Assembly (NCBI GenBank): GCA_965208675.1
Contig: OZ242351.1
Coordinates: 1,888,001 to 1,952,000 of the forward strand
Source: Candidatus Poribacteria bacterium
Lineage (GTDB): Bacteria; Poribacteria; WGA-4E; PCPOR2b
Length of the DNA: 64,000 nucleotides
Direction of reading: 5' to 3'
Positions 52,986 to 58,830 of the stretch are shown in pieces. The notes beneath the pieces were generated by a model. The model was not told the DNA's origin and did no database searches. It saw only the letters and a list, made by a program, of their open reading frames with translations. The translations under genes were made by a program, and so were the position numbers. Numbering within the stretch: position 1 is the first letter of the stretch; every line of letters begins with the position of its first letter.

Positions 52986-53408
52986 GTGAAAAGAACCCGC
53001 TCCCAAATGCCGCAACAGATCTTGCCGTTAGTCGTCTTACTCAGCCTATCGCACTGCATCGGTTGCATGAACGTCATTGACAAAATCCTTGACGGCGGAG
53101 ATGAGGGATGGACTATTGTCGATATGCCTGTCAGAGATGTTTCGGTGCGTGTCGCTGAGAGTCAACCCGTCCAAGTCACCGTTGAGGTTATCGGGTACCT
53201 GCCGGACGGTTGTACAACGCGTCATGAGACGCATCACTCAAGGGAAGGGAACACTGTTACCATTCGGATGACAATGAAACGCAGTGAGGATAAGATATGC
53301 ACGAAGGTCGTGACAGATATTCGAGAGCAAATTTATATCGGGACGTTTGCGCCCGGCAATTACCACCTCATCGTTAACGGCGTGAAAAAGAAATTCCGCA
53401 TTGACTAA
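52986..53408 (+). CDS. Hypothetical lipoprotein, beta-sandwich with a Cys pair
   Basis: Signal ending CIGC; GYLPDGC...ICT...PGNYHLIVNG. Confidence 0.7.
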   Translation: MKRTRSQMPQQILPLVVLLSLSHCIGCMNVIDKILDGGDEGWTIVDMPVRDVSVRVAESQPVQVTVEVIGYLPDGCTTRHETHHSREGNTVTIRMTMKRSEDKICTKVVTDIREQIYIGTFAPGNYHLIVNGVKKKFRID

Positions 53409-53445
53409 TCTTGCGCCTTCCCAGCTCTACTTGTCCTACCTAAAA

Positions 53446-56040
53446 CTAAAACAACGTCCGATATAGAACCTTGATGTTACGCCCCGGCTCCGGCATCACC
53501 GATTTAATTCTCGATAGGTGTTGACGGTATTCAGTATTGAATATATTCTCGACAGTGGTTACCAACTGATGTTGAAGATGCCACATTGAGAACACTACCT
53601 GCAAACCGGCGTCGTACACGAGGTACCCATCTGTCTTTTCTTCAAATTCGCCGAGCCGCTGCTGGTCATCCGAAAACCGCGCTGTCAAATGCAAATTTAA
53701 CGGTAGGGTAACGTATCGCAATGCCACTCGTCCGTTGAGCGGCGGGATGCGTTCGAGCGGCAACCCGCTTGCCGCCAATGACCCTTTGACGTAACTCAAG
53801 TGCGACTCTACATGAATTCGCGGGAAAATTGCGCCGCCAATACCGATCTCGGCGCCGTCGAGGATAGCGTCTTGCCCCTGGTATTGATATATCCACAGCC
53901 ATCCCGCTGCGCCGCTACCCCATTCCTTTTCCCCGGTTTGGGTCGGACTCAGATAGCCGTAAATCTGGTTGCGAAAAACGGCGAGATTGAGCTTCATTCG
54001 GTTGCCTGAATAACGCAGAAATGCCTCCGTACCGAAGCCATCCTCCGAACCGAGTTCAGCGTTGCCGATTTCATATGAAAATACTGCGAGATGCGGACCG
54101 TCTGAAAAGAGCTCTTCGATTCCCGGCGTGCGGAATGTCCTCATGAAGGTGGCGCCCAACCCCAAGTTTTCGTTCCATTGATAGATGCTTGAGACAGCGC
54201 CAGACACGCCTCCGAAGTCACGCCGCTCGACCTTTCCTGCACGTATTTCAACACCGTCGACAAACGGCTCAACCCTTTTGGTGTCGTAACGAAGCGCTGC
54301 CTGTAGCGTGAAGTCGTTGTATCGTTTCTGTTTGAAAAAGAACCCCGCCAAAGATATCTCCCGCGTGTGGGGTGTCCAGTAAAACCCACCCGTCGCATGG
54401 TCGCGATACTCGGTCCAGATCCCTGCAACTGCATCGCCGCGCAAGTGCAGCAGTGCGGTTGTGTTGTACGTCAACAAACCGAACTCCACGCCGAGCGTAT
54501 TGTTGGACTCATACTCTTGATGTTGATAGCGCGCATAGGTCGAATACAGCTTAACTTTTTCGAGAAACGATTCCTCAAACGCGTATTCCAGATTGCCCTC
54601 ATACCGTTGGCGATCGAGGTCAATCGTAACGCCATTGATGTGGCCTTCGGGCGAGCCGGGGATTCCATAGTCTGAACGGTAGCGACCGCCTGAAAGCCCA
54701 ATGTGCCCCCAATCTTTTACCACTGAAGCACCCGTTGAAAAATTGGTGTTTGATAATGAGGTGTTTTCTAGTATACCGACCGGTGTGTGAATATCGCCGG
54801 CGCGGCGGCGGTTCAGCTCTAACCGCCACGCGAGGTTGCCGACCGGAATCGTCACTCCTGTTGTCCCGGTCAGCCCTGAGTTGACCGATTCACTCTGAAA
54901 CGTGAAGTTCATCGTCGGCTGGTTGGGGAGAGTTTGCGGGATGGTCTCGCGTTTGACATTGACGACGCCTCCGAGTGTGCTTGAACCGTAAAGCAGCGAC
55001 GCCGGACCGCGCGTGATTTCAATCCTTGCCGCCGTAGTTGGGTCAATCGCAACCGCATGGTCAGCAGACGATGCCGATTTATCGCCTGAACGTCCGCCGT
55101 CTTCTAGGATAAGCAGACGGCCGCCTCCCATGCCTCGAACGACCGGACGTGCTGCCGATCGCCCCATCGTCCGCTGGGCGATACCCAACTCTCCACTAAG
55201 GGTCTCGGCAATCGTTGCGCCCATTTGTTGATTTAGTTTCTTATCGGAGAGTTTGAGGTCGGTTGTTTTCTCAAACTTAGCGAGTTCGTCATCGTCAGGT
55301 GTGACAATGATTTCACCGAGTTGGACTGTGCTGGGCTTTAATTTTACGTCCAGCATTATCGGATCCGCATTGACAGCAATTTTCTGATTTAATACTTCAT
55401 AGCCAACGCACATGAATTGCAGCGCATGTGTTCCCAACACAATTTGACCAAACTGAAACCGCCCAGTTTCATCAGTTCGAGACTGAATAGTCCTCCCCGC
55501 AGCAACAAGCGTAACCTCGACTTCAGCGATTGGATTCTCTGTCTCCGCATCAATCACTTCTCCTGAAACGGAAACGGTGCGGGACAGCGAAACTGCGTCT
55601 GCGCCATGCGTAAAAAGTATGGCAAGCAGGGAAAATATGACGAGTTTAGATTGAGTGAATTCTTCAACAATTCGATGGCAGAGGCGGTGATTGATTAGGT
55701 GAACAACGGCGAGCAGAAGTCCGCCCAAAGCCATAAAAATGACCTCGGTTCCCTCTGAAGCGTAAAATCGTGCGATAAAGATTAGAAATAATGCACTACC
55801 GAGCATTAGAAACACTCGCCATTTTCGGTGGTTTCTATAGCCCCATGTGAAACTGCCCACAGCAACTCCCACTGCGCCGAATACCAACGCCAACTCCGCT
55901 GACTCGCTGACAATAAACCCAAGCCCAATCAGCGGCAATACGGTCATCAAGAGCTGGGCTGCCATACAGTGGACGGCACAAGCAAACGATAAGCATGCGC
56001 CTACATTGTCCACGACTGCGTGATTCAGATATCTATTCAA
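53446..56040 (-). CDS. MerC-domain / TonB-dependent receptor fusion (ZnuD-like receptor)
   Basis: aa 1-123 D..G..LS..CAVHC...GYRNH...HLIN (MerC-like); carboxypeptidase-regulatory-like domain; RPVVRGMGG, DHAV and RGPASLLYGS plug; MPEPGRN and terminal Phe. TTG start with AGGAG RBS. Confidence 0.9.
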   Translation of the reverse strand: MNRYLNHAVVDNVGACLSFACAVHCMAAQLLMTVLPLIGLGFIVSESAELALVFGAVGVAVGSFTWGYRNHRKWRVFLMLGSALFLIFIARFYASEGTEVIFMALGGLLLAVVHLINHRLCHRIVEEFTQSKLVIFSLLAILFTHGADAVSLSRTVSVSGEVIDAETENPIAEVEVTLVAAGRTIQSRTDETGRFQFGQIVLGTHALQFMCVGYEVLNQKIAVNADPIMLDVKLKPSTVQLGEIIVTPDDDELAKFEKTTDLKLSDKKLNQQMGATIAETLSGELGIAQRTMGRSAARPVVRGMGGGRLLILEDGGRSGDKSASSADHAVAIDPTTAARIEITRGPASLLYGSSTLGGVVNVKRETIPQTLPNQPTMNFTFQSESVNSGLTGTTGVTIPVGNLAWRLELNRRRAGDIHTPVGILENTSLSNTNFSTGASVVKDWGHIGLSGGRYRSDYGIPGSPEGHINGVTIDLDRQRYEGNLEYAFEESFLEKVKLYSTYARYQHQEYESNNTLGVEFGLLTYNTTALLHLRGDAVAGIWTEYRDHATGGFYWTPHTREISLAGFFFKQKRYNDFTLQAALRYDTKRVEPFVDGVEIRAGKVERRDFGGVSGAVSSIYQWNENLGLGATFMRTFRTPGIEELFSDGPHLAVFSYEIGNAELGSEDGFGTEAFLRYSGNRMKLNLAVFRNQIYGYLSPTQTGEKEWGSGAAGWLWIYQYQGQDAILDGAEIGIGGAIFPRIHVESHLSYVKGSLAASGLPLERIPPLNGRVALRYVTLPLNLHLTARFSDDQQRLGEFEEKTDGYLVYDAGLQVVFSMWHLQHQLVTTVENIFNTEYRQHLSRIKSVMPEPGRNIKVLYRTLF

Positions 56041-56095
56041 TTATTGGCTCCTAACGTCATTCGTTACTGTTACCGGTATCGGCTTTGCCGGTCCG

Positions 56096-56133
56096 GCGTG
56101 CCAAATCCGGATTCATCGTTGGATTTGGCACGC
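56096..56133. other. Perfect 13-bp intergenic hairpin
   Basis: GCGTGCCAAATCC-N12-GGATTTGGCACGC with no adjacent U-tract. Confidence 0.75.
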
Positions 56134-56157
56134 TGACAGGCAAACCAAAGTTTTCGG

Positions 56158-56817
56158 TTACGGCGTAACCGTCACGGGAATCAAGAGCGCCGCCGTGAAA
56201 TCGGGGTGGTCGCCGTGCATGAGTTGGAGCTTGATTTCCGTTTGACCGGCTTTAAGCCCCGCCACCTCAAAGGTGAATTGCTCGGCAAGCTCATCGCCGT
56301 GATCATCATGATCATCGTCCTCATCGTGATCGTCATGTTCGTCGTGTTCATCGTCCTCATCGTGATCGTCCTCATCGTGATCATCGTGATCATCATGATC
56401 GTCGTGATCGTCGTGATCGTCGTGGTAAAGGTGTACCTCAATGATAGATGAATCATATCCGCTGAGCGCTAAAGCAAACACCTCTTCCTCGCCATGTTCA
56501 TGGTCGTGGTCGTGGTCGTCTTCCTCTTCCTCTTCCGGATTCTCAGGAAAAAATTCATGGCTGTCGTGGTCAAGGAACGCCGTCAGTACGTCGAGTTCCT
56601 CTCCGACTTTGAGCGTGATACCTCCCGTGTGCGCCCCTTCAAATTGACGGTATATCTCGTTCCCGTCAACCTTGAGCACAAAACCGTCCGCATCGGCATG
56701 AAAGGGTTCATCGTCATGGCCATCTTCGACAATAGGATTGTCGTCTTCGCCGCAAGCAGCGAAAAGTGCAACAGATACGAGTAACAAAAACGTAAAACGT
56801 AAAACAGGTGTAAACAT
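56158..56817 (-). CDS. His/Asp-rich lipoprotein, putative metal scavenger
   Basis: GGAGG RBS before ATG 56817, lipobox FAAC, DHDHDHEH and (HDD)n tracts, LMHGDHPDF motif. Confidence 0.85.
   Translation of the reverse strand: MFTPVLRFTFLLLVSVALFAACGEDDNPIVEDGHDDEPFHADADGFVLKVDGNEIYRQFEGAHTGGITLKVGEELDVLTAFLDHDSHEFFPENPEEEEEDDHDHDHEHGEEEVFALALSGYDSSIIEVHLYHDDHDDHDDHDDHDDHDEDDHDEDDEHDEHDDHDEDDDHDDHGDELAEQFTFEVAGLKAGQTEIKLQLMHGDHPDFTAALLIPVTVTP
56295..56425. repeat. 9-bp-period low-complexity repeat encoding (HDD/HDE)n
   Basis: TCRTCRTGA units in tandem. Confidence 0.85.
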
Positions 56818-56976
56818 TATTACCTCCAGATATAGATAGGCTGTATTTCCCGGCATCACGACTGGTGATACCACGAAAAATAGGCAGACTACCGCCGAGA
56901 CTGTATACAACTCAGCCGGGAAAGACAGATAATGATATGGTCAAATAAAACAGAGATTATGAGAACAACGAGCAGT

Positions 56977-57285
56977 TTAAACGGGGATAGTCGGCGGGGC
57001 ACGACTCCGGACACCCTTGTCAAGAATCGTGGAAATGAAATGTAATTTGATGATGGGTCTGTGAATTGAGATGCAGGTATTAAGATTGTTGACGTCAACG
57101 GCTTTAAGCTCTATGCCGACGTGGTTGGCATTGAAGAAACAAGCGGAGCAGTGTTCTGAACAGCAATCGACGTGCTCATGGTCGTGGGTAAGTGCAACAA
57201 GGTTTACCGTTATCAGATAATAAACGATTCCAATCGCTATTACCCAAGCCACGCTGTTCGGATTTATTCTAATCTTCCGCAACAC
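56977..57285 (-). CDS. DUF2946-like leader protein with CxxC and C-terminal RAPP motif
   Basis: N-terminal hydrophobic helix, HDHEHVDCCSEHCSAC, ends GVRSRAPPTIPV; GAGG RBS. Confidence 0.82.
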   Translation of the reverse strand: MLRKIRINPNSVAWVIAIGIVYYLITVNLVALTHDHEHVDCCSEHCSACFFNANHVGIELKAVDVNNLNTCISIHRPIIKLHFISTILDKGVRSRAPPTIPV

Positions 57286-57331
57286 TCCTCACCTCATTCA
57301 AACGTCCAAAAATTCGCAAACACAAAGCAGT

Positions 57332-57361
57332 ATGCTATCACAAGCAGATTAGCATTGTCAA
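57332..57361 (-). promoter_or_regulatory. Promoter of the metal-uptake operon with overlapping dyad
   Basis: Minus strand TTGACA-N18-TAGCAT with TG extension; ATGCTA-N12-TAGCAT inverted repeat at 57332-57355. Confidence 0.55.
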
Positions 57362-57540
57362 ATTTATTTGTTTCAAAAATCGAACCCAGTGGGTATCATA
57401 CCCAGTTCATCACACTGATTGCGCTAATAAAATTGATGATAATTCCGACATCGGCAATAAAGTTCAGATTGAATGATTTCTGTCCTGTCTCTCCTAAAAA
57501 ACAGTACTATTTCCAATTTGGATTTAGCCTGCGCTTTGGC

Positions 57541-58830
57541 TTATTGGGGGTGCCTTTCGCTCCCGATAGTGTGGACGATCAGGTTAACACCCCATTCTAA
57601 CCACTTTTCATTCTCAGAATTTTCTCCCCACTTTAATCCAATCCCAGCGGCGTCGTAGTATACAGCGGTTCGTCCATTGAGTCTAAGCGCATAAAATTCG
57701 CCGCGCTTTTTGGCGACGCGCGGCACACCCTTCTTAAATTCAAAAAAGCTGCGGCAGACCGCATCCTTTCGATTAATCGGCACGAAATGTGCTGTTTGAC
57801 CGACAATCTTCCAGACCTCGAAGCGAATGGAGTTTGCCACCGGCCCATCAATCCCCCATGCGGTGGATATGTCCGAAAAAAGGAGCGTTCCGCCGCTCTG
57901 CAGGTAGGCTCGCAGATTCGCACGCTCCGTTTCGGAGAATGTAAACGCATCTCGTGCAGCGACGTAGATCAGTGGAATTTGGAGAATATCGGGGGAAGCG
58001 AGCGGCATCGTCTCAGGCAAAAGCTGCGTCCGTACCTTCGTCCATCTATTCATCGCATACACCAAGCGGTTCAAAGCTTGGGCACGAATGGCATCTGCCG
58101 CGTCCTCGTATTGGACAACCACGATATTGTAATACCCTGTAATCTCACGTCCGGTACCGCGTACCTCCACCTGAACCGCGGTTCCCGCGTTACTTTGAAT
58201 TTTGTCAAGGATGCCGGCGGCACGGCTTGGCGCAATTACCTTTCCCTCCGAAGCCATTCGTCCAACTATCGGCAAACTGCTCACTGACAAGTTGGGTTGG
58301 GAAACCGCATCCGCACTCAGCTCAACGTTCGTTTGGAATTCGGTTTCCGCCACCGGATTCAAGCTTACCCGAGCGGGGGAGTGCACGACTGTTGCTGATT
58401 GCGTTGCCTGGGGCCCCGTGCGAAGCGGCACCGCAGCAACACGCCGGGTAATTGGGCTCTTTCGATCCATGTCAACCGCGGCAATCTGCCGGGGTGGCCG
58501 TTTTCGGCGTTTGAGCGGCGATGGGTTCGGCAACGGCACAACAGCAACTTGTATGGCAGACTCCGCAATTGGGTGCGGAGTAGGCAACATCGCCACCCAT
58601 AAAAGGATAAAGGCGTTCAGCACAAGTGATAACAGCCACGCTGTTGCGGCGATTTTCCTCCGACGGGCGACCGTAGATAAGCGAGGCGCGGCTAATACTT
58701 CCTTTTTACGTCCGGCAGTGAACTCGGGGCGTGCCGGAAGCGATTCGAAATTTCGGTGCACCTTACGGCGTCTACGCTTTGCCCGAGTGTAATTCAAGCG
58801 AGCAACTTGCCGATAACGTGAGTGATACAT
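57541..58830 (-). CDS. Membrane-anchored DUF4159-like protein
   Basis: TM helix plus Pro-rich linker; PLIYV..FTFSETERANLRAYLQSGGTLLFSD; WGVNLIV. Confidence 0.75.
   Translation of the reverse strand: MYHSRYRQVARLNYTRAKRRRRKVHRNFESLPARPEFTAGRKKEVLAAPRLSTVARRRKIAATAWLLSLVLNAFILLWVAMLPTPHPIAESAIQVAVVPLPNPSPLKRRKRPPRQIAAVDMDRKSPITRRVAAVPLRTGPQATQSATVVHSPARVSLNPVAETEFQTNVELSADAVSQPNLSVSSLPIVGRMASEGKVIAPSRAAGILDKIQSNAGTAVQVEVRGTGREITGYYNIVVVQYEDAADAIRAQALNRLVYAMNRWTKVRTQLLPETMPLASPDILQIPLIYVAARDAFTFSETERANLRAYLQSGGTLLFSDISTAWGIDGPVANSIRFEVWKIVGQTAHFVPINRKDAVCRSFFEFKKGVPRVAKKRGEFYALRLNGRTAVYYDAAGIGLKWGENSENEKWLEWGVNLIVHTIGSERHPQ

Follow-up and report, generated by a model that had tools for sequence, protein, structure and literature searches.

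The subject of this analysis is a short leader gene, together with the metal uptake operon that it appears to head, in a genome of Candidatus Poribacteria (contig OZ242351.1). The stretch of DNA analysed, referred to here as the window, is 64,000 nucleotides (nt) long, and every feature of the operon lies on its minus strand: a promoter, the leader gene, a lipoprotein gene and one open reading frame (ORF) in which a MerC domain is joined to a TonB-dependent receptor. The promoter is of the sigma-70 type (57332..57361), with a -35 element TTGACA, an 18-nt spacer and a TG-extended -10 element TAGCAT. With 10 of 12 positions matched, plus the upstream TG, it ranks first of eight promoter-like sites within 53000-58000, and the -35/TGn-10 block is kept 5′ of most leader copies in relatives. 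The number of such sites in this interval is not above that of shuffled sequences (mean 5.4). No promoter-like site was detected by the promoter scan on the minus strand of either intercistronic spacer, and the arrangement proposed in an earlier, sequence-only reading of the window, with three co-oriented genes behind a single promoter, was confirmed.

The leader ORF (56977..57285) encodes 102 amino acids (aa) if read from GTG 57285 and 101 aa if read from TTG 57282. In nearly all relatives the gene starts with a TTG that has GAGG 9 nt before it; TTG 57282 is the window equivalent, and translation probably begins there rather than at the GTG. A spacer of 159 nt (56818..56976) separates the leader from the lipoprotein gene (56158..56817), which encodes 219 aa with the lipobox LFAAC. 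A 250-aa ORF called from 56910 is the same lipoprotein with an upstream extension, the most likely start being ATG 56817 behind the Shine-Dalgarno (SD) sequence GGAGG (56827..56823). A further 117 nt lie between the lipoprotein gene and the fusion ORF (53446..56040), a single open frame of 864 aa with a TTG start.

The leader peptide and its relatives

In an AlphaFold model built with 56 sequences (mean pLDDT 75), the leader possesses a transmembrane (TM) helix at residues 9-33 and a short helix at residues 47-54, with coil elsewhere. The TM helix is followed by HDHEHVDCCSEHCSAC (residues 34-49), a His-rich stretch ending in CSAC, which forms part of the candidate metal-binding segment HDHEHVDCCSEHCSACFFNANH (57121..57186; residues 34-55). 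The motif RAPP occupies residues 95-98, with the codons CGT GCC CCG CCG (56992..57003), and is followed by TIPV and a TAA stop codon. The description given earlier, of a 102-aa leader with a hydrophobic helix and with RAPP four residues ahead of the stop, is thus upheld.

A tblastn-type search of the window genome and 60 relatives located the leader gene in 51 of the 61 genomes, often in two to five copies each. Thirty copies, comprising orthologues and paralogues from four families of one order, were aligned with a mean column identity of 45%. Eight residues are invariant in all 30 (H36, C46, C49, H55, R95, A96, P97 and P98), and two more, H34 (at least 90% of copies) and S94, are nearly so. 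Among 33 distinct copies, 44 residues separate CxxC from RAPP in all but the window copy, which has 45, and 29 of the 33 have a four-residue tail after RAPP. Both of the motifs on which the sequence-only reading depended, CxxC and RAPP, are therefore conserved in every aligned copy and stand 44-45 residues apart in every distinct one. Regarding the extra ligands that it proposed, the histidines stood, H36 and H55 being invariant along with C46 and C49, whereas a Cys-Cys pair at residues 41-42 is not conserved. The codons for RAPP differ synonymously among relatives, and selection therefore acts on the peptide.

The wider leader family follows the same plan. A TM or signal segment comes first, its helix closing with HxH; CxxC lies roughly 10 residues on, and (S)RAPP with a short tail completes the chain. 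The distance from CxxC to RAPP in this wider family is 43-49 residues, mostly 44.

Kinship with the DUF2946 family (PF11162), to which the known metal-sensing leaders belong, proved to be a matter of level. For the window leader itself the search was negative. PF11162 gave no match to it at E≤10 and none over the whole window genome, the leader drew no match from Pfam or NCBIfam when scanned directly, and the gathering score (23.7 bits) was not reached. Similarly, none of 91 word-search relatives of the leader carries a precomputed Pfam label, and of ten profile hits scanned singly, the four that match PF11162 do so at 14.9-18.2 bits, under the 23.7 cut-off. All of these results weigh against a placement in DUF2946. 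At the family level there is a sub-threshold signal. PF11162 matches 8 of the 30 Poribacteria leaders (E≤10, best E 3e-4) and is by far the commonest family to do so. A profile of the 30 leaders, when searched against 1.84 billion representatives, retrieved 57 proteins at E≤1e-3, and PF11162 matches 26 of 56 aligned sequences (the window leader plus 55 profile hits) at E≤0.1, with a best value of 5.5e-6. In the four singly scanned matches, it is the CxxC-to-RAPP part that aligns, to positions about 51-117 of the model's 117, i.e., its C-terminal half. Finally, DUF2946 clusters account for 12 of the 30 nearest named neighbours of the leader in a language-model Atlas (score 0.94).

By the operational definition of a CruR-type leader, as worded in the text of PMC9426467, the leader belongs with that group, considering its CxxC-to-RAPP gap and the presence of both motifs in 30 of 30 copies. 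It likewise shows the attributes of CutF-like proteins: a TM segment (helix 9-33), a Cys/His motif, a C-terminal proline motif and a position at the head of an operon. In view of its sequence, it is treated here as a divergent CutF/CruR-like branch beyond the reach of the Pfam model, and not as a Pfam-defined member. Surveys based on PF11162 therefore undercount this sequence family.

CruR (Bp2923) of Bordetella pertussis, as described in the text of PMC9426467, resembles the leader in being the first gene of a TonB-receptor uptake operon and in having an N-terminal hydrophobic segment, a CxxC motif and a poorly structured C-terminal half. The measurements also agree, with 44-45 residues from CxxC to RAPP and 3-4 from RAPP to the stop. 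In CruR itself, 45 residues intervene between the two motifs, a distance kept within 1-2 residues in >2000 DUF2946 proteins; RAPP lies three residues from the end; and the spacer that follows is 162 nt, versus 159 nt here (PMC9426467). The two differ in that the Pfam model misses the leader described here and that this leader has the invariant H36 and H55, giving a Cys2His2 set. CruR cargo consists of BfrG and a PepSY_TM protein, whereas the cargo here is a His-rich lipoprotein, MerC and a ZnuD-like receptor, and the metal is copper for CruR but likely zinc here. The phyla named for DUF2946 in the same text are mainly Proteobacteria, with a few Planctomycetes, Firmicutes and Deinococcus, to which Poribacteria would be added.

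The CutF leader of Rhodobacter capsulatus (PMC9973294; bioRxiv 10.1101/2025.02.05.636593) is also alike, according to the texts of those reports, in its signal/TM segment, Cys/His motif and C-terminal proline stall motif, and it acts in cis on the next gene, as is proposed here. CutF employs CxxxC and PPP, however, in place of CxxC and RAPP, and its stall, which copper induces, opens a stem-loop that immediately precedes the gene for a detoxifying oxidase, whereas the present leader precedes uptake cargo across a long spacer. A set of 5,334 "CutF-like" proteins has been reported, for which TonB-like neighbours and non-copper subfamilies, possibly for Ni/Co, were already noted in the text (PMC9973294). 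The arrest peptides SecM, ApdA and ApdP (PMC10951233, PMC7897499, PMC12992588) are, as far as those accounts go, likewise small exported proteins at the head of an operon, with a RAPP/RAGP motif close to the C-terminus. In contrast to the present leader, with its lipoprotein, MerC and TonB-dependent receptor, they precede protein-localisation (Sec/YidC) genes and sense secretion force; here, a conserved metal site stands in the place of the force sensor. RAPP leaders upstream of metal genes have also been described in Streptomyces (PMC12992588), and in Caulobacter the DUF2946 protein CC2720 heads a Zur-activated efflux operon.

A different view of the leader is that its 101-aa product is a small metal-binding protein, stable and anchored in the membrane, that serves as a chaperone or an accessory like ZrgD; RAPP would then be structural and no stall would occur. 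The leader does sit in the position of ZrgD, a DUF2607 protein of unassigned function that comes first in the zrgD-A-C-B-E operon of Vibrio as presented in PMC9817125, and DUF2607 clusters supply 4 of the 30 Atlas neighbours. Nevertheless, the DUF2607 model (PF10795) does not match the leader. Residues 56-94 are poorly conserved and predicted to be coil, while RAPP and its distance to CxxC are fixed. RAPP is moreover counter-selected genome-wide, with 5 occurrences observed versus 17.4 expected in ORFs of at least 150 aa of the window genome, where the only credible small ORFs ending with RAPP are the two leaders; such depletion is also in line with PMC12992588. Lastly, nearly all copies have a TTG start and are followed by a long conserved spacer. 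A stable protein is accordingly a very unlikely explanation, and the analogy with CruR and CutF makes it probable that the leader is an arrest-peptide regulator. By its position, ZrgD may even be the same kind of element, which would explain a component that has no assigned function.

Operon forms and the probable metal

Twenty loci from relatives, holding 23 leader copies, were compared. In 21 of the 23 cases the leader is followed by the lipoprotein plus the receptor and/or a MacB-type ABC system. The longest operon, found in three relatives (G017, G007 and G010), begins with leader, His-rich lipoprotein, MerC, ABC ATPase and FtsX/MacB-type permease, and continues with a 173-aa His-containing lipoprotein, a DUF3299 protein, a YceI-DUF3299 protein and the receptor. 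The window genome holds two reduced modules. In the module of the window (leader, lipoprotein, MerC::receptor) the ABC part has been lost. The second module (G000:C1:1963803-1969207; L044:3803-9207) lies outside the window, with its leader copy ~24 kb away, and consists of a leader (101 aa), a His-rich lipoprotein, a stand-alone MerC (132 aa), an ABC ATPase, an FtsX/MacB permease, a 173-aa His-containing lipoprotein and a DUF3299 protein. A distance of ~6 kb between two leader copies is common in other genomes.

Relatives of the leader also occur in Verrucomicrobiia, at eight loci, of which seven had their ORFs listed and three had their proteins scanned. Those on contigs of metagenome-assembled genomes (L046, L047, L049-L053) display HxH, CAAC, 44 residues and SRAPP. 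Their operons are of three kinds. The first has a ZnuA-family binding protein (PF01297, 4.8e-56) with ABC-3; the second has an ABC ATPase, MacB permease, DUF3299 and MerC; and the third has a receptor with TonB (confirmed by Pfam), followed by ORFs that resemble ExbB and ExbD by eye. One of these contigs, L052, has two leader copies.

A gene set comparable to the ABC-containing modules is known from Vibrio. The operon from VP_RS01475 to VP_RS01455 encodes zrgD (DUF2607), zrgA, an ATPase, a permease and zrgE (DUF3299), and is described in the text of PMC9817125 as a Zur-regulated zinc importer. Its order of small membrane protein, His-rich binder, ABC ATPase, permease and DUF3299 is collinear with the long Poribacteria operon and with the second module of the window genome. 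This Zrg-like set (ATPase, FtsX/MacB permease, DUF3299 and His-rich binder) is a property of that module and of the relatives' long operons, and not of the window module, which is without the ABC part. There are further differences from ZrgABCDE. Pfam recognises neither the leader as DUF2607 nor the lipoprotein as DUF2796, and the Poribacteria form adds MerC, an extra lipoprotein, the YceI-DUF3299 protein and the receptor.

The receptor itself points in the same direction. Its best NCBIfam model is ZnuD (NF038289) at 184.8 bits (E 3e-54), a score far under the 950 cut-off, so that it is not an equivalog, and its best solved relative is ZnuD of Neisseria meningitidis (4rdr, 1.6e-29). It differs from ZnuD by an N-terminal CarboxypepD_reg domain and, in this genus, by the in-frame MerC. 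The Verrucomicrobial ZnuA-family solute-binding protein also leans towards zinc, but less firmly: its best NCBIfam model is AztC (109.5 bits, below the cut-off), and a Mn model comes second.

Zur sites were also considered. Judged by eye from the sequences, the window genome has a canonical zinc locus elsewhere (G000:C1:2661072-2664772), where a Fur-family (Zur-like) gene is divergent from the genes of a ZnuA-like lipoprotein and a COG0523-like GTPase. A box, TGTTATATTATAACA (TGTTATATTATAACATAACA), is present at about 2663909 of G000:C1, between the Zur-like and ZnuA-like genes. In one relative, G053, a near-identical box, GGTTATGTTATAACATAACA (L034:1499-1518; L032:17266-17285), precedes the leader by ~190 nt. 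It stands behind TTGACT in a promoter-like setting and may form part of a second, Zur-controlled promoter; only in G053 was a Zur-type box found upstream of a leader. Unlike the Vibrio zrg genes, which are under Zur, neither leader module of the window genome has a Zur box (TGTTAT-Nn-ATAACA, ≤1 mismatch) near it. This absence fits leader-only control, yet it removes a direct zinc marker and to that extent tells against zinc. A Zur-like palindrome inside the leader ORF (57222..57208) was dismissed, as it is at chance level (two found with 2 mismatches, 1.92 expected).

Copper could instead be what the same arrest leader senses and the module imports, or else a different thiophilic metal (Cd, Ni or Co, for instance). 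The CxxC motif is a classic Cu(I) ligand, MerC, a family represented here, is a thiophilic-metal permease, and the TonB-copper model scores 55.8 bits against the receptor. The characterised DUF2946 members, CruR and CutF, all respond to copper in the texts of PMC9426467 and PMC9973294, and some His-rich CutF-like clusters are linked there to Ni/Co genes (PMC9973294). Each of these points is one against zinc. The receptor, however, ranks ZnuD above copper in both comparisons, by model score (184.8 vs 55.8 bits) and by solved structure (1.6e-29 for ZnuD vs 3e-8 for OprC). The context is that of a Zrg-like ABC/DUF3299 system and a ZnuA-family binding protein, a Zur-type box lies upstream in G053, and the 20 compared loci contain no copper chaperone, oxidase or PepSY gene. 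An invariant Cys2His2 set would also suit Zn(II). A copper or other thiophilic-metal system is thus an unlikely reading. The earlier proposal of "Zn, Ni or Co rather than Cu" narrows, on context (the ZnuD-like receptor and the Zrg-like and ZnuA-type operons), to zinc, which is probably the metal that is sensed and imported.

The second gene product matches the His-rich lipoprotein foreseen from the sequence, being 219 aa long and His/Asp-rich. Its model (AlphaFold, pLDDT 66, with low-confidence loops) shows a beta-sandwich core of Ig-like type that carries two insertions, both acidic, His-rich and disordered, and Glu is abundant as well as His and Asp. No Pfam or PDB sequence match was obtained for it, and Foldseek returned generic Ig-like folds only, none at E≤0.001 and without a link to ZrgA or PA4063. 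The His/Asp-rich repeat region (56369-56519) shows in-frame 3- and 6-base indels between sponge metagenome contigs, and its length differs from relative to relative.

Truncation or an in-frame TGA affects some leader copies, as in L029 (G006:C1:3642000-3654500) and at G016:C27:14801-15100. Two modules (L025 and L031) look degraded, with short MerC or ATPase fragments. Together, these defects point to an ongoing turnover of duplicated modules.

The spacer and a proposed mechanism of control

The interpretation that best accommodates these data is that of a nascent peptide like CruR and CutF which stalls its ribosome in the apo state, thereby keeping a zinc uptake operon on through a Rho-based read-out. 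Taken as a whole, and resting largely on analogy, this reading is rated at somewhat better than even. In it, a strong, probably unregulated promoter would transcribe the leader, and the N-terminal helix of the leader would bring the chain to the membrane. The Cys2His2-type site (H36, C46, C49 and H55) would leave the ribosome just as RAPP, 44-45 residues on, is reached, and at the stall residues 34-55 would sit 42-63 residues from the peptidyl-transferase centre, just outside the tunnel. Peptidyl-RAP-tRNA and Pro-tRNA would then fail to form a peptide bond, in keeping with the stall chemistry established for RAPP (PMC10951233) and with the in vitro stalling of CruR at this motif (PMC12992588). 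Metal loading of the site would set the duration of the stall via a changed pulling force on the chain, an effect that has been proposed for both CruR and CutF in the texts of PMC9426467 and PMC9973294. With the apo peptide, the stalled ribosome would shield nascent RNA in the 159-nt, G-poor spacer from Rho, and the genes would be on; with the metal-bound peptide, the stall would be released and the genes would be off. Of the cargo, the His/Asp-rich lipoprotein would act as a periplasmic or surface scavenger, the ZnuD-like receptor would provide passage across the outer membrane, and MerC would be the inner-membrane permease.

CruR polarity is favoured because the module is an uptake system, although the opposite polarity is possible, as with CutF in the text of PMC9973294, and counts against it. 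Features of the spacer bear on the read-out. Its first 60 nt are pyrimidine-rich and G-poor (C15 G7 T28 A10), C exceeds G there in 22 of 22 copies (C 11-19, G 3-10, T-rich), and Rho is encoded in the window genome (611 bits). Spacer length is 159 nt in the window, 130-164 nt in 19 other aligned Poribacteria, and 199 and 224 nt in two divergent ones. The tract is U-rich rather than C-rich, so that a rut site is only plausible, which is a weakness of the Rho model. Overall, the combination of CruR polarity with a Rho read-out is given a little less than an even chance.

A competing read-out would be purely translational, with the same leader acting by CutF-like polarity or by occlusion of the SD, and without Rho. 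Here, metal would prolong the stall, or the passage of the ribosome would open a pairing between the SD and a UCUCU tract located 20-25 nt after the stop. In the minimum free energy (MFE) fold of the single spacer, nt 7-25 are indeed base-paired with the SD and start codon, an alignment of 20 spacers allows such pairing in 76.7% of cells, and CutF itself works through an SD-shielding stem-loop in the text of PMC9973294. On the other hand, the fold is no better than those of shuffled sequences (z -1.05), and the anti-SD helix gives no covariation signal in the 20 spacers, the SD being invariant. The anti-SD would start ~40 nt 3′ of the stalled P-site, beyond the presumed footprint of the ribosome, and induction by metal makes little sense for uptake. 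Control of this kind is regarded as doubtful, and the Rho read-out with CruR polarity is retained as the working model.

As for other RNA structure in the spacer, RNAalifold predicted 0 pairs in the consensus of the 20 spacers. Two conserved blocks, TTTCCCGGC (56923..56915) and GCCGGGAAA (56854..56846), are complementary, and a hand-drawn long-range helix with an inner hairpin is 86.5% paired. Covariation in this helix is not significant, however, as 58 of 500 shuffles reach its score. Both outcomes leave a conserved spacer structure unsupported, a point against the Rho read-out. A terminator-like hairpin (56896..56883) was rejected since such hairpins occur at chance level (7 found, 5.4 expected) and its T-run is deleted in G017, G006, G010 and G007.

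The kind of element described here is already known from CruR, CutF and the CutF-like proteins. To our knowledge, every metal-sensing arrest peptide demonstrated to date responds to copper and comes from Proteobacteria. Literature searches yielded no prior description of a zinc-sensing DUF2946 leader, of zinc-uptake cargo, of the Cys2His2 signature, of MerC-receptor fusions or of a Poribacteria/Verrucomicrobiia range, although the supplementary member tables of PMC9426467 and PMC9973294 may hold Poribacteria or Verrucomicrobia members; the word "zinc" is absent from the main texts of the CruR (PMC9426467) and 2023 CutF (PMC9973294) papers. If the proposal is true, the principle would extend to a zinc uptake regulon, to a Cys2His2 ligand set and to candidate phyla without a genetic system. 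More tentatively, the leaders of Poribacteria, Verrucomicrobiia and metagenomes might constitute a distinct, Pfam-invisible family of natural zinc-sensing nascent chains that, in place of Zur or alongside it, switch zinc import. Zinc-dependent, co-translational folding of the Cys2His2 site, 44 residues from RAPP, would in that case pull on the chain and release the arrest. Engineered zinc-finger/SecM force sensors have reportedly been used in experiments of this type, and the leaders would be their natural counterpart. Ligand site and stall site stand a constant 44 residues apart, and this ruler would in turn make a prediction on how force is transmitted through the exit tunnel. On a broader scale, the duplication of modules suggests that zinc scavenging matters to sponge symbionts in their host.

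The MerC-receptor fusion and neighbouring features

The MerC domain of the fusion ORF (55684..56040) has four TM helices and matches PF03203 over residues 11-119 at 75.1 bits (cut-off 27.6); the stand-alone 132-aa MerC paralogue of the second module scores 79.1 bits. At the junction with the receptor there is a retained, signal-peptide-like segment, LVIFSLLAILFTHGADA (55594..55644), and no in-frame ATG, GTG or TTG occurs between MerC and this segment. The receptor part (53446..55593) is composed of CarboxypepD_reg (residues 157-246), Plug (264-359) and a TonB barrel that extends to residue 864, as delimited by Pfam. Contigs from runs X1, X6 and X7, representing two studies, span the fusion junction, with no indels listed there; the check was made on contigs, and run X1 may be the source sample itself.

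In-frame MerC::receptor fusions were found in the window genome, in G002 (872 aa) and in G005 (865 aa), with three different junctions, and each keeps the signal-peptide-like segment of the receptor. In G003, an N-terminal fragment of the ABC ATPase is joined to the receptor. None of ten other receptor orthologues with N-termini available for comparison is fused to MerC, and the receptor of G006 is the clearest stand-alone form, with its own Met-Lys signal peptide and beginning MKRLIFCLFTILLTHNVDG. The MerC-TonB receptor fusion noted in the sequence-only reading is thus real, as one 864-aa frame bridged by contigs, but it is, judging from these comparisons, a lineage-specific derived state and not the ancestral architecture.

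MerC is expected to cross the membrane with four helices and to have both its termini on the cytoplasmic side. On this topology, the receptor signal peptide could insert as a fifth helix after MerC and be cleaved on export, which would release the receptor. Independent fusions of this kind would amount to a natural experiment on producing a permease and a receptor from one polypeptide via an internal, cleavable signal peptide.

A second receptor type (L021:4104-6971; L032/L033, 979 aa) is extended at the N-terminus by ~300 aa, and its barrel is 68-70% identical to that of the window receptor. In G002 it is located 3′ of the fusion gene, whereas the G053 form is immediately preceded by a leader of its own.

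Between the lipoprotein gene and MerC lies an intercistronic stem-loop (56096..56133) with 13-bp arms, GCGTGCCAAATCC and GGATTTGGCACGC. Its folding energy is -48.2 kcal/mol (z -5.4), and none of 200 shuffles folds as well. A hairpin occurs at the same position in other genera, with different arm sequences. This element probably stabilises the transcript or partly terminates it, thereby setting the ratio of lipoprotein to transporter.

Convergent with the receptor gene is a 140-aa ORF (52986-53408, plus strand) for an exported or lipoprotein-like product, for which no family match was obtained. It may belong to the uptake system, as it stays beside the receptor in G002, G003, G017, G006, G010 and G007, with 43-74% identity.

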